Shown here piece after piece: positions 38,401 through 44,400 of a stretch of 59,088 nucleotides of DNA. Source of the DNA: Armatimonadota bacterium (lineage in GTDB: Bacteria > Armatimonadota > SYMT01); the NCBI GenBank assembly GCA_046292385.1, contig JBKBRF010000043.1, positions 1 to 59,088 on the forward strand, read 5' to 3'. Position numbers: made by a program. The first letter of the stretch is position 1. Each line of letters begins with the position of its first letter.

Positions 38401-41400
38401 TCTCGAACGCGCCGCGGTAGACGAACTCCCGGTGCGGCTGGTTCGTCATCCGGATCTCCGGGTTGCCGGAGAAGGTGTCGGAGCGGTCGATCAGCAGCGG
38501 CACCAGCACGCGGCAGCCGCTCTCCGCCAGGCGCCGCGCGAACTGGGCGGCGGGGTCGACTCCCGGCGCGAGGCCGACCAGCATCTCCGGGGTCCAGTCG
38601 CAGTCCGGCACCGCCACTACGCCGGCCGCCGCCCGGCCGCGCGGGACCAGCTCCAGCGCCTCGATCTCCATTCCGGGGAGCACCTCCCACCGCAGCCGGC
38701 GGCAGGTGTAGGACAGCGCGGGATCGTCCGAGACGCGGCCGGTCACGAGCCGCTCGTCGCCCTCGGCGGGCACCGGCAGGAGCGGGTCGACCGCCCCGAG
38801 ATACCGCCGCAGCCGCTCCCGGTTTCCCTCTACGGAGCGGGCGTACGCCTCCGGCGAGCTGAGATCCCGCTTCCAGAGCGCCGCGCGAGAGCTGCGCGCC
38901 GACTCCGTCTGCGCGTCGAGGAACCGGTGGATTCCGTCCACCATCTGCGCGGCCAGATCCCCCTGCGCCTCCAGCGGTCGCGTCCCCGAAAGCGGCATGC
39001 GAGCCTCCCCCGCCGAGCCGGCGCCGGCAGTCGCAAGTAGCAGCAGCAGTACCGAGGTGGTGAGCACCGCCCAGGCGGTGACGGAGCGGATCGAGCGGCG
39101 CGGCGCGGGCATGGCAGACCTCCGACATCGACGTTCGAGCGAAGGTGTCGGTCTCCCTACGAACAGGCGGGTTCTTCCCACGGGCGGCGATAGGTAGTAA
39201 CCTAGTATTGCGTAGTGCGTATTGCGTAACGGAGCGCCTTCTCCGCTTCACAAGACTTGCTGCCGGGCGAAGCGCCCTTAAAGAGCTGTTCGCCCGGCAC
39301 GACGTCATGGAACGAGGTAGCAGCCGTCCGCTACGCAATACGAAATACGCAATACAAAACAACCCACTGGGGATCCTGAAAGCCATCCGACGATGATCGA
39401 CCTCCGACTGCTCCGAGAGAACCCGGACCTGTTCCGCCAGGCTTCGCAGAACAAGCGCATCCCGGCGGATATCGATGCGGTGCTCCAGACCGACTCCCGC
39501 CTGCGCGAGCTGCGCGTGGAGGTGGAGGAGCTTCGCGGGGAGCGGAACCGGGTCTCCAAGAGTATCGGCAAGCTCCCGCCCGCCGAGCGCGAGGCGGCGC
39601 TGGAAGAGGCGAAGGTGCTGCGGGAGCGGCTGGCGGCGTCCGAGCCGGAGCTGAAGGAGCTGGAGGAGCGTCTCGCCGCGCTCCTGCTCACGGTGCCGAA
39701 CCTGCCCGACCCCGAAGTGCCGGTCGGCGCCTCCGAAGAGGACAACGTGGAATTGCGCCGGTGGGGCACGCCGCGCGAGCTCGGCTTCGAGCCGAAGGAC
39801 CACGTCGACCTGGCGCTCTCACTCGACCTCGCCGACTTCCAGCGCGGCTCCAAGGTCTCCGGCAGCCGCTTCTACTACCTGAAGAACGAGGGCGCGCTCC
39901 TGGAGATGGCGCTCGTCCGGTGGGCGATCGAGTTCCTGTGGGGCCGCGGTCTCACGCCGATGATCGTGCCGGAGCTGGTGCGCGACGAGGCGATGACCGG
40001 CACCGGCTTCTTCCCCCTCGGCCGGGAAGACGCGTACGCGATCGAGAAGGACGGCCTCTACCTGGTCGGCACGTCGGAGGTGCCGCTCGTCTCGTTCCAC
40101 ATGGACGAGATCCTGGCGAAGGACGAGCTGCCGAAGCGCTACGTGGGCCACAGCTCCTGCTTCCGCCGGGAGGCGGGCGCCGCCGGCAAGGATACCCGCG
40201 GCTTCTACCGGGTCCACCAGTTCCACAAGGTGGAGCAGGTGGTGATCTGCGAGAACGACCCGGACGTGATGCGCGCGGAGCACGAGGCGCTGGTCGCCAA
40301 CGTCGAGGCGCTGCTTCAGGCGCTGGAGCTGCCGCACCGGGTCGCCCGCGCCTGCACCGGCGAGCTGGGGATGGGGCAGACGCTCAAGACCGAGATCGAG
40401 ACCTGGATGCCGAGCCGCGGCGCCTACTCGGAGACCCACTCCTGCTCCACACTGGGCGAGTTCCAGGCGCGGCGGCTGAACCTGCGCTACCGGGACGCGG
40501 ACGACAAGCTCCGCTTCTGCGGCACGCTCAACAACACCGCCCTCGCCAGCCCGCGCATCCTGATCCCAATCCTGGAGACCTACCAGCAGGAAGACGGCAC
40601 CGTCGTCGTCCCCGAGGTGCTCCGCCCCTACCTGCCTGGGATCGACGTGATCCGGCCCAAGCGCTAGCGCGCAGGGTCTAGGGTCTAGGTCTGTGATAAC
40701 GGGCGGGCTCTCCACGCGCGGCCCGTTTCTCTTGAAGCCTGACGAAGGGCGGCCTCCACATGGGGGGGCCGCCCTTCTTGGTCAGTAGCACCACCCGCGA
40801 GTCGCGCGCGGTCGTCGACACCGCTGCCATTCGCCACCCATCCCCAAGCGAGGGGGCTCCGAGAGCCTGCGTCTTTTAGTCTCAGCTAAAAACTAATCCG
40901 TTCCTTGTGGAATCCGGATTTCGGCGTGATATCTTCAGTGGAGTTGCAGCTAGCTACACAAGGCGACGCCACTCGCCTGAACTTACAATGAGGCGTGACA
41001 AATCTTGTTCGCCTAGCTCTTTGCTGCGTTCGGCGGCCCGGCTGCAGAGTGGATCCTTTTCCCCGTCCGGCAGACCTCCGCTTCCGTTAAATGTCTTCGG
41101 CGTCGCCGGCGCCACGTCTCTGGAAGGAACTGAACCCGTGCTCCGACTCCGACACCGCGCTTTCACCCTGATCGAGCTCCTCGTGGTGATTGCGATCATC
41201 GCCATCCTCGCCGCGATCCTCTTTCCGGTCTTCGCCCAGGCTCGCGAGGCAGCGCGGAAGGCAGCCTGCTCCAGCAACCTGAAGCAGCTCGGCCTGGCGG
41301 TGCTGATGTACACGCAGGACTGGGATGAGACCGTCGCTCCGCCGCGCGCCGGCTACAACGCGATGATGCCGGAGGGGAGGATGGCGATCCGCTGGTTCGG

Positions 41401-44400
41401 TGCCTGGGACACGGCGACCGGGATCCGCTACTACCCGCAGTACGGGTTCTACTACCCCTATATGAAGAACGCCGACGTGGCTGGCTGCAGCTCGCTCAAC
41501 CTCCCCGCCCGGCCGCAGTACGGGCCGACGGATTACGCCTTCAGCGACCGTCTCTACTCGGCGACCCTGGCGATGATCCAGAGCCCCAGCGACACGGTGA
41601 TGATGTTCGACTCGGTCCGCATCAATGGAGGGACAACGGACCGGGTGCCGTGGGGTTACCCTCCTACCGCGGGTCTCGGCATCTACGTGCCCCCGGGCGC
41701 CGCCGGACCCCTGGCCGTGCAGGAGCCCACTTTCCACGCGCGGCACAGCGGCTTCGGCAACGTGGTCTGGATGGACGGCCACGTGAAGGCGGTGAAGCCG
41801 AAGTTCTTCCCGGCCCCCGCGGCGAATGCCGCCCTGCGCCGCCAGCACTCCATCGGCGATATCGACAGCGACGGCAACCAGTCCACCGACGAGCTGTTCG
41901 ACTTCAACTAGCCTCCGCCAGTCCCGCGATGGAGGGGATCCGGCAAGGGAAAGTGGGAGAGCTGCTCCCGGAAGCAGCTTCTCAAGCTCCCCCACTCTCC
42001 CTTGCTCCCACTCCAACACCTCACAAGCAGCTGGACACACCACTGGAGTCCACCCCCCACTCCGACAGTTAGGCCGGCATCTCTTCGGACGCAGCTTCCG
42101 CGGAGATGCCGGGGAGCTCACCGCAGTATGTTTAGGGCGCCTCGCACGCGGCAGGTCTATCTCTGGCACAAGTGGACCGGTCTCATTACCGGCCTGTTCA
42201 TCTTCTTCGTCTCCCTGACGGGAACGCTCGCGGTCTTCAAGAACGAAATCGACGCCGCGATGACTCCGGGCAAGCAGGTAAAGCCGGCGGGCACGCGTGC
42301 GCCGCTGGAGCAGATCGTCACGACGATGCGGGAAGCCTACCCGGAGAGCCGGGTGGGGCAGATCAATCTCGCCGCGGGGCCCGGGGACGTGCATAGCCTG
42401 TCGATCAAGGACGGGAAGCGGTCTCGCGAGGTATTCATCGACCCGTACACGGCGGCCATCACGGGGTCTCGGACCGGAGAGAACCTGGCGAACGTGATCC
42501 GCCAGACGCACCTGCGGTTCTACTACTTCAAGTGGCAGGGCCGGGTCTTCGTGGGGGTGGTGGGCCTGGCGCTGCTCATCTCTACCATCACCGGCTTCAT
42601 GATCTACGGGCCGTTCATGAAGAACATGGTCTTCGGCCAGATTCGGTGGAAGCACGGGCCGAAGATCGTCCTCTCGGACTGGCACAAGCTGGTCGGTATC
42701 GTGACCCTGGCCTTCAACCTGGTCTTCGGTCTCACGGGAGCCGTGCTGGGCCTGGAGAACCTCGCCCGCTTCTCTCCGCCCGTGAGTGAGGCGCTGCACC
42801 CTAAACCCGAAGCGGCCAACCGGAAGCTGGCGCCGGAGACCGTGGAGGGACGCCTCACCGTGGATGAAGCCGTCCAGAAGGCGCAGGTCGCGCTTCCCGG
42901 CTTCGAGGCAACCTCCGTCACCCTGCCTCGTGCCGAGAAGAGTCACTGGATGCTGCGCGGCAACCTTCGCGGTCACTTCGCGGCGCGAGGCACCAGCTGG
43001 GCCCTTCTGGATACCCACACCGGCATGCCGATCGAAGTCCACGACGCCCGGCGCGCTCGGCCGGTGACCTGGGCCTACAACCTGTCGGAGCCGCTTCACT
43101 TCGGGGACTTTGCCGGGCTGCCTCTGAAGGTCGTCTACGGGGTGGCCGGGCTGTTGGGGAGCTCCCTCTACCTCACCGGCTTCGTCATCTGGCTGTACAA
43201 GCGGCGCAAGAAGAAGCCCACGCAGGACCGCCCCGCGGTGCCGCCGTCACCCACTGCTTCCTCTGCTGTCTAGCCCTCACACATGGGCAGCTGCGTCCTT
43301 CCGAGGCACCAGAGCCACCCGGAGCAAGGGAGCTCTGGTGCCCTCATGCATCGTCCGCCCCCCGGCAATGGTCCAGGGCGGCGCCGCCGAGCAGCGAGAT
43401 TCGCCCGGCCGGCTGAAGGCGAGCGGCGGCCGGGCCGGCACCGGCGAAACGGGAAGAAAAGACCCGTCCATCCAGTCGGGCGAAGTTGCTGTGATTCCAT
43501 TCGTGCCCCTTCAGCGAGGCCGCTCCGATGCCGATAAGGTGGTTGCCGGGCTGGTGAGCGCAAGCCCCGAGTTTCGATGGAGAGGCGAGGAGACGGCGGT
43601 AATGACGAGCGAGGACCTGGGACTGGTACCGGGTGCGCGGGTGCTGCTGGCGGACCGAGACGAGCAGCAGGCGCGCCAGATGGCGGAGTACCTGGAAGCG
43701 GTGGGCCACACCGTGCTCCGGGCCACCGACGGTGAGGACGCGCTGCGCCTGATCCGGTGCGACGATCCGGAGGTCGCGCTGCTCGACGTCGGCATCCACC
43801 GCCTGAACGCTTACCAGATCTGCGAGCGGGTGAAGGCCCATCCCTCCACTCGCGGCATCCCGGTGATCATGCTGGTCGACCCCACCGCGCAGGACGAGAA
43901 GATCCGCGGGCTGGAGGTGGGCGCCGAAGACTTCCTCGCGCGGCCGGTCCACAAGCTGGAGCTGCTCGCCCGGGTCAAGTCGCTGGTGCGGGTGAAGCGC
44001 CTGAACGACCAGGTGGAGACGACCGAAAGCGTCATCTTCGGGCTGGCGCGGATGCTGGAGAGCAAGGTCTCCAGCGTCGGCAGCGACTCCGCCCGCCTGG
44101 CCGACCACGCCTGTCTCCTCGGCCGCGCACTGGGGCTCACCGAGGATGACCTGGAGATTCTCCGCAAGGGCGCGCTGCTCCACGACATCGGCAAGATCGC
44201 GGTCCGCGAAGAGGTGCTGTTGAAGAACGGCCGCCTCACCACGGAAGAGTACAACGAGATCAAGCTGCACCCGGAAGTCGGCGAGCGGATCTGCGGCCCG
44301 CTCCGCTGCGCGGACCTGGTACTGCCGATCATTCGCCACCACCAGGAGCGCTGGGACGGCCGCGGCTATCCGGACGGCCTGCAGGGCGAGCAGATTCCGC

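Follow-up and report, generated by a model that had tools for sequence, protein, structure and literature searches.

Why does a gene for a FoxB-type membrane reductase stand next to a gene for a prepilin-type protein in a member of the Armatimonadota? The protein belongs to DUF1559, a large pilin-like family for which we know of no function. In the loci described for FoxB and HiuABC, the PepSY_TM reductase gene shares an operon with a TonB-dependent transporter gene immediately 5′ of it (FoxB preprint; HiuABC paper). We analyzed the pair in its contig, a stretch of 59,088 nucleotides referred to below as the window, and compared it with PepSY_TM loci of other genomes.

The gene pair and its surroundings

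A first-pass annotation had placed a DUF1559 gene and a PepSY_TM gene at 41138-43273 (+), and Pfam searches and open reading frames returned the same identities and coordinates. The locus comprises the following features:

39393..40667, +, seryl-tRNA synthetase gene (Pfam tRNA-synt_2b, Seryl_tRNA_N), upstream context outside the module
40854-40868, terminator-like hairpin after the seryl-tRNA synthetase gene, from hairpin scoring
40875..40892, +, AT-rich near-palindromic element TTTAGTCTCAGCTAAAAA, 246 bp 5′ of the GTG start, putative operator or promoter element
41138..41911, +, DUF1559 / H-X9-DG pseudopilin-like gene, prepilin-type, 257 aa, start GTG
41912..42127, spacer between the pilin and PepSY_TM genes, 216 bp, above the gap of most pairs
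42128..43273, +, gene for a predicted PepSY_TM (FoxB-type, COG3182) di-haem membrane reductase, 381 aa from ATG
43338..44588, +, gene for a response regulator with an HD-GYP-type HD domain (Pfam Response_reg, HD_5, HD), downstream context

The translated pilin starts with the leader MLRLRHRA followed by FTLIELLVV..., carries a C-terminal H-x9-DG motif, and matches N_methyl (9.5e-9) and SBP_bac_10/DUF1559 (2.5e-12) in Pfam as well as TIGR02532 in NCBIfam (32.3 bits, cut-off 16.3). Residues 1-26 of the mature DUF1559 pilin, Glu5 among them, are near-invariant between phyla, as expected of a subunit that is handled by a conserved assembly machine. An AlphaFold2 model (pLDDT 86.5, pTM 0.82) predicts a helix over residues 5-55 and a beta sheet. 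Among known structures it comes closest to type IV pilins and pseudopilins (PilA4, Z 5.5; EpsG, Z 4.1; PulG, Z 3.6), and nearly all of the top 23 matches belong to these two groups; no solute-binding-protein fold occurs among the matches listed. The structural similarity to pilins is modest, with a highest Z of 5.5.

The reductase frame is open over 42002-43273 (+), with the probable ATG at 42128, and its product matches PepSY_TM (1e-57) and PepSY (1.3e-5) in Pfam. Judged by sequence the protein is FoxB-like: it matches FoxB (7ABW) over the full length (E 5e-13), and its histidines H14, H128, H186 and H324 are invariant across 32 homologues. FoxB H198, which aligns with H186, is given as a haem ligand in the FoxB preprint.

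Pilin-first pairs generally have a median gap of 27.5 bp, and most gaps are below 50 bp. The 216-bp spacer of the window lies above this median, and co-transcription here is therefore not assured; it holds a short GC hairpin, and no promoter-like site was scored within 41912..42127. The response-regulator neighbor is not kept beside the pair at the other loci examined.

Distribution and origins of the pairing

A six-frame search of the genome (7.04 Mb, 98.45% complete) recovered three PepSY_TM genes, at C2:93241-94290(-), at C80:7419-8477(-) and in the window (C43), and each adjoins a DUF1559 gene on the same strand (3/3), as the earlier annotation had reported. The pilin gene comes first in C43 and C2, and the PepSY_TM gene in C80. 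The genome has 43 matches to PF07596 and about 37 full-length DUF1559 genes according to a purpose-built HMM; with 37 such genes among the at least 4,949 found by a crude gene caller, the chance that a DUF1559 gene flanks a given gene on either side is about 1.5%. Their PepSY_TM proteins represent three different lineages, and the pairs are therefore not duplicates of each other.

The pairing previously noted at six loci in 31 Armatimonadota genomes proved to be wider. Across 401 genomes of the phylum, a same-strand DUF1559 open reading frame adjoins 38 of 43 near-full-length PepSY_TM loci; the pilin is missing at four, and one locus (L015) ends at the contig edge on its upstream side. DUF1559 also lies within 1.5 kb of PepSY_TM at 14 of 25 loci sampled from Planctomycetota, and all four PepSY_TM genes of the Planctomycete G561, a genome with 113 DUF1559 genes, have it as a neighbor. 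The DUF1559-PepSY_TM pairing is real and non-random, and the adjacency is conserved in two phyla.

The DUF1559 gene occupies a slot equivalent to that of a TonB-dependent transporter gene, as had been proposed for this genome. Such transporters lie within 1.5 kb of PepSY_TM at 23 of 30 loci in a Verrucomicrobiota sample and, in place of DUF1559, at 4 of the 25 Planctomycetota loci, mostly immediately upstream and on the same strand in both phyla; an association that had been cited without counts now has numbers. No DUF1559 neighbor was found at any of the 30 Verrucomicrobiota loci, and PF07596 gave no match in the nine transporter-slot genomes tested (0/5 at E 0.001; 0/4 at 1e-10). The Verrucomicrobial contrast may simply mirror a lack of DUF1559 in those genomes.

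The first-pass annotation had further argued that the pilin replaces the transporter because the genome has none. The absence holds for this genome, in which neither Plug nor TonB_C was matched and the best TonB-barrel hit had an E of 0.027. The causal part is not supported in this form: TonB-dependent transporters are present in 18 of 25 other pair-bearing genomes and in 249 of the 401 genomes of the phylum. Replacement on account of absence is thus not general, and the pilin is not a simple stand-in for an absent transporter.

Phylogenies place the partner pilins in four well-supported clades that are largely parallel to those of the PepSY_TM proteins. The C80 pair, reversed in order, joins a clade-A pilin, 82% identical to its G035 counterpart, to a PepSY_TM protein from another clade; pilins and reductases have co-diversified, with partner swaps. 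The PepSY_TM tree needs at least six neighbor switches. Within it the window protein nests among transporter-linked Verrucomicrobial PepSY_TM proteins (SH-aLRT 98), which indicates that the window pair arose independently, and a single clade of all PepSY_TM proteins of its own phylum was rejected by the AU test (p 0.0002). The adjacency has originated several times independently.

Regulatory links and a possible role

The 18-mer pattern of the AT-rich element, allowing up to two substitutions, occurs at four sites in the 7 Mb genome, all of them 200-270 bp 5′ of DUF1559 genes: at the window pair, at the C2 pair, at a DUF1559 gene beside feoAB (C3:293419) and at C59:23014. The C80 pair is preceded by a variant of the element. 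The feo cluster reads feoA-feoA-feoB-feoB-associated, followed by the DUF1559 gene. In relatives, 12 of 25 pilin-first pairs have a palindrome (TCCGA-N8-9-TCGGA) on their 5′ side; the rest of these loci holds no further copy, and the palindrome recurs 5′ of feoB in 8 of the 12 genomes that carry it at pairs. Neither this palindrome nor a Fur-like box (best in the window, 10/19) was found at the pairs of the present genome, and the iron link of the window pair is therefore indirect.

Further neighbors were identified at PepSY_TM loci. PiuC-like and esterase genes recur; in G561 the operon order is esterase, DUF1559, enterochelin esterase, PepSY_TM, and an esterase gene is also present at L168, a Verrucomicrobial transporter locus whose PepSY_TM protein is related to that of the window. 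Iron-linked neighbors and operators are thus present in relatives of the pair, and the link to iron is partly filled in by the operator common with feoAB and by the enterochelin esterase of the Planctomycete module. An ArsR/SmtB metalloregulator gene follows the C2 pair, and a CopY/BlaI-like repressor (49 bits, under the cut-off) is encoded near the C80 pair. The cobalamin riboswitch that had been cited as a parallel is real (100.6 bits) and lies immediately 5′ of another DUF1559 gene, from the same clade as the window pilin.

The two genes very probably constitute a functional module, and this module probably serves the acquisition of iron or another metal. We tentatively favor a role in extracytoplasmic reductive uptake of a metal, most likely as an iron chelate, with the pilin acting upstream of the reductase. 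Since the pilin holds the operon slot of a TonB-dependent transporter, it is proposed to act one step before the reductase. The DUF1559 protein would be made as a prepilin and cut by the single prepilin peptidase of the genome; its assembly would fall to a type II secretion or type IV pilus-like machine, for which the genome encodes six secretins and eight full-length GspE/PilB-type ATPases. Within a short pseudopilus it might be the subunit that gives substrate specificity, picking up the chelate at the outer membrane or through it and passing it to the periplasmic PepSY domains. The predicted inner-membrane FoxB-type reductase, with two b-type haems on its four conserved histidines, would then act on the chelated metal at the periplasmic face, and freed Fe(II) could enter via FeoAB, which is encoded in this genome. 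The entire chain, with the filament route across the outer membrane, is more speculative still. We read the pair as a probable new form of iron-chelate uptake by reduction, and as a first pointer to what DUF1559 proteins do.

The DUF1559 protein could instead be an accessory subunit of the reductase tethered in the inner membrane, a reading that we regard as possible but doubtful. The N-terminal helix of the cleaved pilin would remain in the membrane beside the helices of PepSY_TM, leaving the globular domain free to bind the chelate or to support the PepSY domains, and the outer membrane would be crossed through diffusion or an unrelated porin. Small membrane proteins as partners of PepSY_TM reductases have precedents, as HiuB reportedly requires the 61-residue HiuC and FpvG requires FpvH, J and K, and archaeal sugar-binding proteins with pilin-type signal peptides offer one for binding proteins anchored in the manner of pilins (PMC3047682). 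The short median gap would suit two proteins that form a stoichiometric complex, the DUF1559 partner genes have no secretin or ATPase gene next to them, and many pair-bearing relatives have transporters of their own. However, the conserved N-terminus is typical of filament-core subunits that engage a machine, the predicted fold is pilin-like, and the slot filled is that of an outer-membrane importer rather than of an inner-membrane accessory. DUF1559 genes in this genome also adjoin many unrelated genes (multihaem cytochromes, glycoside hydrolases, ABC and MFS transporters, metH), so that the family is not iron-specific.

It is unlikely that the pilin delivers or recognizes a substrate other than an iron chelate, such as copper, as for CrpH, or a periplasmic oxidant. 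The repressor and metalloregulator genes near the C80 and C2 pairs would suit such a substrate, as would the lack of iron-type operators at the pairs of this genome; the PepSY_TM superfamily is also diverse, with a copper-linked CrpH subfamily and poorly conserved cavities, according to one study (PMC13038864). The window protein is nevertheless nearest to proteins of Verrucomicrobial transporter loci, among them the esterase-bearing L168, the AT-rich element ties its pair to the DUF1559 gene beside feoAB, and the operator and enterochelin esterase of relatives point to iron.

We consider it quite improbable that the two genes are co-regulated neighbors without a shared mechanism, placed together by shared promoters or inheritance. 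DUF1559 genes, a numerous class of envelope genes, often come first in operons and sit 5′ of many unrelated genes, the genomes compared are akin and hence not independent samples, and the window gap is long; yet the adjacency holds over two phyla and many families, has re-formed with different PepSY_TM lineages, mostly has short gaps, and lies far above the density expectation both here and in G561 (4/4).

An outward flow of electrons from the di-haem protein to a pilin-based structure, or help in placing redox proteins, is very unlikely; it would tie DUF1559 to extracellular electron transfer rather than uptake. Several DUF1559 genes of this genome do adjoin multihaem cytochrome c genes (e.g., L036, L045, L047) and the PDB entry closest in sequence to the pilin N-terminus is Geobacter ‘geopilin domain 1’ (E 4.5e-9), but this match covers the generic pilin helix only, the globular domain has no haem motif, the PepSY_TM homologues characterized to date reduce soluble chelates, and the enterochelin esterase and feoAB neighbors favor uptake.

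Comparison with known systems

The reductase family of the window is common to FoxA-FoxB of Pseudomonas aeruginosa, HiuABC of Caulobacter crescentus and PiuA/PiuB/PiuC-type loci. Like FoxA-FoxB and HiuABC, the window combines a reductase that has full-length FoxB homology, four conserved histidines and a PepSY domain with a putative substrate-acquisition gene immediately 5′. It differs in having a prepilin-type DUF1559 gene where those loci encode an outer-membrane barrel, and any energy coupling would have to rely on a pilus ATPase instead of TonB-ExbBD. CrtA-CrpH of Bordetella pertussis is a metal-regulated system of an outer-membrane importer and a PepSY_TM protein with conserved haem-binding histidines like those of the window protein; CrpH forms a separate, copper-linked sequence cluster, a comparison made here from its description (PMC13038864).

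The pseudopilins of type II secretion (GspG/PulG/EpsG) and of uptake systems (ComGC of competence and the DNA-binding minor pilin ComP) share with the window pilin the N-terminal methylation motif, Glu5, and a long N-terminal helix with a beta sheet. EpsG, PulG and ComP are structural matches of its model, and secretins, ATPases and a prepilin peptidase are encoded in the genome. Competence pili are a precedent of import by a type IV filament. The window pilin scores 33.1 bits, far under the GspG equivalog cut-off of 88.85, and is about twice the size of GspG; it also differs from GspG/ComGC-type proteins in its C-terminal H-X9-DG, in a gene located away from the machinery clusters, and in a family size of 37-113 copies per genome.

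In the archaeal bindosome, the sugar-binding proteins of Sulfolobus carry class III, pilin-type signal peptides and depend on the Bas system, a type IV filament-like assembly (PMC3047682). There, too, a protein with a pilin-type signal peptide works with a membrane transporter or enzyme in taking up nutrients. Proteins of the bindosome show solute-binding folds and deliver to ABC transporters, and their host has no outer membrane, whereas the window protein is bacterial, has a predicted pilin-like fold and has a reductase as its partner; what the two may share is a mode of action rather than membership of one family.

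Pilin and reductase genes of the window

The window encodes a DUF1559 prepilin-type protein and, 216 bp further on and on the same strand, a PepSY_TM reductase. The pair and its immediate setting comprise the following features:

upstream of the pair: serS (assigned by Pfam), with a terminator-like hairpin behind the gene
40875..40892 (+): AT-rich, near-palindromic 18-mer found at four places in the 7 Mb genome, all 200–270 bp before DUF1559 genes
41138..41911 (+): DUF1559 prepilin-type gene, 257 residues (Pfam N_methyl 9.5e-9; SBP_bac_10/DUF1559 2.5e-12)
42128..43273 (+): PepSY_TM reductase gene, reading frame open from 42002, start codon probably the ATG at 42128 (Pfam PepSY_TM 1e-57, plus a PepSY domain)
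downstream of the pair: response regulator with an HD-GYP-type domain (assigned by Pfam)

In the translated pilin, a short basic leader precedes a prepilin cleavage motif with Glu5 and a hydrophobic helix, and the C-terminal part has an H-x9-DG stretch, which can be read as H197...D207-G208 followed by H209. Its N-terminal cleavage/methylation motif scored 34.9 bits with PF07963 (cut-off 21.2) and 32.3 bits with TIGR02532 (cut-off 16.3), and PF07596 reached 47.9 bits against a cut-off of 23.3, matching only profile positions 2–102 of 268. The H-X9-DG model TIGR04294 gave no match to this protein at E 0.001, whereas the copies of the C2 and C80 pairs and a feo-linked copy did match. NCBIfam models of GspG, PilA and ComGC matched below threshold and in the N-terminal part only; the GspG equivalog TIGR01710 scored 33.1 bits against a cut-off of 88.85, over the N-terminal helix alone. 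A confident AlphaFold2 model (pLDDT 86.5, pTM 0.82) shows a helix of 50 residues at the N-terminus together with a beta sheet. With this model, Foldseek found nothing in the PDB at E 0.001 or better, and in a wider structural search (VIA) nearly all of the first 23 matches listed were type IV pilins or pseudopilins, with modest Z scores (PilA4 5.5, EpsG 4.1, ComP 4.0, PulG 3.6). The structural matches listed include no solute-binding fold, which leaves the Pfam name SBP_bac_10 without confirmation but is no evidence against it.

The reductase matched PF03929 at 196.7 bits (cut-off 28.8) over profile positions 3–295 of 295, the periplasmic PepSY domain PF03413 at 25.8 bits (cut-off 24; ORF residues 101–156), and FoxB (7ABW) across its full length (E 5e-13). 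Across 32 aligned homologues, four histidines (H14, H128, H186 and H324) do not vary, and each aligns with a histidine of FoxB; the counterpart of H186 is H198, a haem ligand according to the FoxB preprint. These four transmembrane histidines would fit two b-type haems as in the FoxB type, and the sequence places the protein in the FoxB-type (COG3182) family, as a putative ferric-chelate reductase. A complex prediction for the two window proteins with custom alignments returned no answer (score 0.00) and is evidence neither way.

Regional G+C at 40907..43273 is 0.64–0.68, compared with about 0.70 or more in most flanking segments, and third-position G+C is 0.81 and 0.84 in the two pair genes, compared with 0.88–0.95 in their neighbors. 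Such a base composition is compatible with later acquisition of the pair. At the gathering threshold, Rfam identified no RNA family anywhere in the window. Further upstream, 33444..36578 (+) encodes a large secreted-type protein in which several bacterial Ig-like domains (Big_7, PKD) are combined with a GDSL lipase/acylhydrolase domain at the C-terminus.

Recurrence and ancestry of the pairing

A six-frame search of this genome identified three PepSY_TM genes, each adjoined by a DUF1559 gene on the same strand, which bears out the statement of the first-pass annotation that all of them are so paired (3/3). The pilin comes first in the window and on contig C2, and the reductase comes first on C80. 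There are 43 PF07596 matches in the genome and 37 full-length DUF1559 genes by a custom HMM; with 37 such genes among at least 4,949 (crude caller), the chance of a DUF1559 neighbor on either side would be about 1.5%. Duplication of a single pair does not account for the three, since their reductases fall in three lineages. The C80 pilin is 82% identical to a pilin of the same-family genome G035, whose reductase belongs to another clade. The second PepSY_TM gene of G035 (L198), which also has a pilin upstream, was ruled out as an orthologue of the window gene (30% identity over 141 residues).

No TonB-dependent transporter gene lies beside any of the three PepSY_TM genes. Plug and TonB_C had no match in this genome, and the best TonB-dependent barrel (E 0.027) is not credible, in agreement with the earlier claim that such a transporter is missing here. 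The causal clause attached to that claim, namely that the pseudopilin takes the place of the transporter because there is none, is not supported: TonB-dependent transporters are present in 249 of 401 genomes of the phylum, and 18 of the 25 other genomes with a pair have them too. It follows that the pilin does not simply fill in for a lost transporter, and a general rule to that effect was rejected. The genome encodes six secretins, eight full-length GspE/PilB-type ATPases with seven shorter matches of the same family, and one prepilin peptidase. This set of type IV filament machinery is unusually large for a genome without TonB, yet it has a single prepilin peptidase.

The neighborhoods of PepSY_TM genes were then compared among three phyla.

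PepSY_TM (PF03929) genes and their neighbors in three phyla
Armatimonadota (own phylum): 98 of 401 genomes (E 0.001); 43 near-full-length loci; same-strand DUF1559 neighbor at 38 of 43
Planctomycetota: 20 of 401 genomes (E 1e-25); 25 loci; DUF1559 within 1.5 kb at 14 of 25; TonB-dependent transporter at 4 of 25
Verrucomicrobiota: 42 of 401 genomes (E 1e-25); best 30 of 85 matches; DUF1559 at 0 of 30; transporter within 1.5 kb at 23 of 30

Own-phylum loci were scored for a DUF1559 neighbor alone, transporter scoring covering Planctomycetota and Verrucomicrobiota, and related loci were reached via the pilin alignment, their genomes then being taken from those loci. Within the phylum, the DUF1559 neighbor is almost always directly upstream of PepSY_TM (median gap 27.5 bp in pilin-first rows). 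Loci without such a neighbor are L009, L023, L032 and L199, and L015 ends at a contig edge on its upstream side; ORFs are split in some loci from metagenome-assembled genomes (L200, L201, L205–L207). In a Planctomycete with 113 DUF1559 genes (G561), all four PepSY_TM genes have a same-strand DUF1559 gene upstream. The transporter of Verrucomicrobiota is mostly directly upstream of PepSY_TM on the same strand. Among genomes with the transporter arrangement, PF07596 had no match in the five Verrucomicrobial (E 0.001) and four Planctomycete (1e-10) ones tested, so the Verrucomicrobial count of 0/30 may simply reflect the absence of DUF1559.

Several Planctomycete loci contain small ORFs of about 165–205 aa with a lipoprotein-like look between DUF1559 and PepSY_TM (L150:791-1324; L162:625-1242, the same place as L196:2546-3073; L195:2213-2746 and 2743-3240). 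They match one another by blastp at 1e-10 to 1e-23, have no Pfam match, and may represent a third component of the module.

Partner pilins form four well-supported clades among the 37 DUF1559 genes of this genome, and pilin clades largely track reductase clades (9 label changes vs. 18.3 in shuffles). A joint FastTree tree of 87 reductases needs at least six switches between neighbor types. The window reductase groups with two Verrucomicrobial transporter-linked proteins (support 98 with both FastTree and IQ-TREE; 37% identity), and a tree uniting all own-phylum reductases was rejected (AU p 0.0002, the group having been chosen after seeing the tree). This grouping indicates that, in the window pair, a native-type (clade B) pilin is joined to a reductase whose lineage is elsewhere found behind transporters; no other single case shows as clearly that the slot was refilled.

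Upstream elements and other DUF1559 loci

In relatives, 12 of 25 pilin-first pairs have the palindrome TCCGA-N8-9-TCGGA or a close variant in their upstream 330 bp, and the rest of those loci lacks it. Eight of the 12 motif-carrying genomes also have it upstream of feoB, at a distance of no more than 1.5 kb, with no match downstream. Genome-wide scans of three relatives (G084, G133 and G115) gave few matches, mostly inside ORFs; the intergenic ones are confined to pair loci, three unexplained sites and a site directly before feoA-feoB of G133, the sole other intergenic match of that genome. The palindrome resembles what we take to be the type-1 site of IscR (Rrf2-type), with the consensus ATASYYGACTRwwwYAGTCRRSTAT. 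It is not enriched in the genome studied here (47 matches vs. about 65 expected from shuffles) and is absent from the window as well as from the C2 and C80 pairs. One palindrome of this genome, TCCGATAGGGTATTCGGA at C26:85861, stands just before a Rrf2 regulator gene, which heads a cluster with genes for an NMT1-type binding protein, an ABC permease and a DUF1559 protein (L049:1507-5777 (+), C26 ~85891-90161). A crude scan for Fur boxes upstream of the three pairs, using a 19-mer that we assume to be the Fur consensus, matched at best 9–10 of 19 positions in all regions.

The four sites of the AT-rich element precede the window pair, the C2 pair, a clade-B pilin gene on C59 and a DUF1559 gene behind feo genes, and a variant precedes the C80 pair. 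At the feo locus (L037:1901-5738 (+), C3 ~290528-294365), feoA, feoA, feoB, a small FeoB-associated gene and the DUF1559 gene lie on one strand. This DUF1559 gene carries its own element (C3:293419), and its orthologues are the second pilins in two PepSY_TM loci (L020 and L025). A shared leader RNA was considered and dropped, because the ~200-nt leaders of the five DUF1559/PepSY loci with the element are conserved nowhere beyond it. An ArsR/SmtB metalloregulator gene follows the C2 pair, a CopY/BlaI-like repressor gene (below cut-off) is near the C80 pair, and one Planctomycete operon has the order esterase, DUF1559, enterochelin esterase, PepSY_TM.

The slot behind a cobalamin riboswitch is typically occupied in other bacteria by a TonB-dependent transporter gene. 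As the first-pass annotation had indicated, a DUF1559 gene (L055:5001-5822 (-)), of clade B like the window pilin, is located directly downstream of such a riboswitch (L055:5973-6156 (-), C55 ~29446-29629; 100.6 bits, E 9.4e-24), and an MscS-like channel gene follows (L055:4035-4910 (-)). On C78, the B12-dependent methionine synthase gene metH is immediately preceded by another DUF1559 gene (L060:5001-9752 (+)), where no riboswitch was found at the gathering threshold.

DUF1559 genes of this genome also adjoin multihaem cytochromes, glycoside hydrolases and other transporters. A module of TPR proteins, FG-GAP/ASPIC (UnbV) proteins and a DUF1559 gene recurs at five loci (L036, L045, L047, L050 and L051, on C3, C17, C19 and C27), three of which carry multihaem cytochrome c (Cytochrome_C7, C554, MtrC-like domains), and is a second redox-flavored context for DUF1559. 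Four tandem DUF1559 genes, three of them near-identical, are present on C13 (L043:5624-10298 (-)), within a few kb of genes for an ECF sigma factor, a zf-HC2 anti-sigma factor and a SpoIIE-type phosphatase. Two sister paralogues (L034:4007-4996 (-) on C2 and L058:5885-6889 (+) on C66) share what lies behind them: two small genes with no Pfam match, whose products have 203/209 aa (59% identical) and 125/124 aa (71% identical). Other RNA-related matches near DUF1559 genes are a c-di-AMP riboswitch (L058:1069-1198 (-), 80 bits), a tmRNA (L039:3972-4327 (-), 164.8 bits) and a single CRISPR-repeat-like match (L056:7143-7166 (-), 39.9 bits, E 0.0015), none of which is directly upstream of a pilin gene.

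Possible role and relation to known systems

Few protein families of Planctomycetes and their allies are larger than DUF1559, which numbers 37–113 genes per genome in the two for which it was counted. The literature searched, outside subscription journals and supplements, gives no function for DUF1559, contains no report of a PepSY-pseudopilin pairing and offers nothing relevant on H-X9-DG. Its place beside a well-understood reductase family in a conserved operon, where a siderophore importer lies elsewhere, provides a concrete and testable role for DUF1559.

The two genes are best read as a module for the reductive uptake of a chelated metal, probably iron. In such a module, the pilin-like protein would work one step ahead of the reductase and take the part that an outer-membrane transporter plays elsewhere. 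A short pseudopilus would capture the chelate and pass it to the PepSY domains, and Fe(II) would then enter through FeoAB. Taken as a whole, this chain is a tentative proposal with somewhat less than even chances, because we infer each of filament assembly, outer-membrane passage, chelate binding and contact. The main rival, which we consider only a little less likely, is that the pilin is an inner-membrane-tethered accessory subunit of the reductase; HiuC and FpvH/J/K could serve as models of such partners, and this role alone would still make the pilin a new partner type for PepSY_TM reductases. A substrate other than iron, to which we give a lower probability, is conceivable because the PepSY_TM superfamily includes the copper-linked CrpH (PMC13038864).

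Uptake through a pilus-like filament, if true, would constitute a new class of import across the outer membrane, powered by ATP via the pilus machine and not by TonB. The pairing is also relevant to the way in which diderm bacteria that lack TonB acquire iron chelates and perhaps vitamin B12. A broader and quite improbable extension is that DUF1559 pseudopilins serve as exchangeable heads, each specific for a substrate, of an import machine that works without TonB, in which a type IV filament or pseudopilus would pass through a secretin, capture metal chelates and retract into the periplasm. Its cargo would be ferric siderophores here and corrinoids at the riboswitch-controlled copy, and the DUF1559 expansions of Planctomycetota, Armatimonadota and their allies would then correspond in function to the large sets of TonB-dependent transporters in other diderms.

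The pairs share their reductase with operons that combine a TonB-dependent transporter and PepSY_TM, but differ in the partner, which is a pilin here. The archaeal bindosome is another of the nearest known systems, as are the pseudopili of secretion or competence, whose similar parts are put to a different use.
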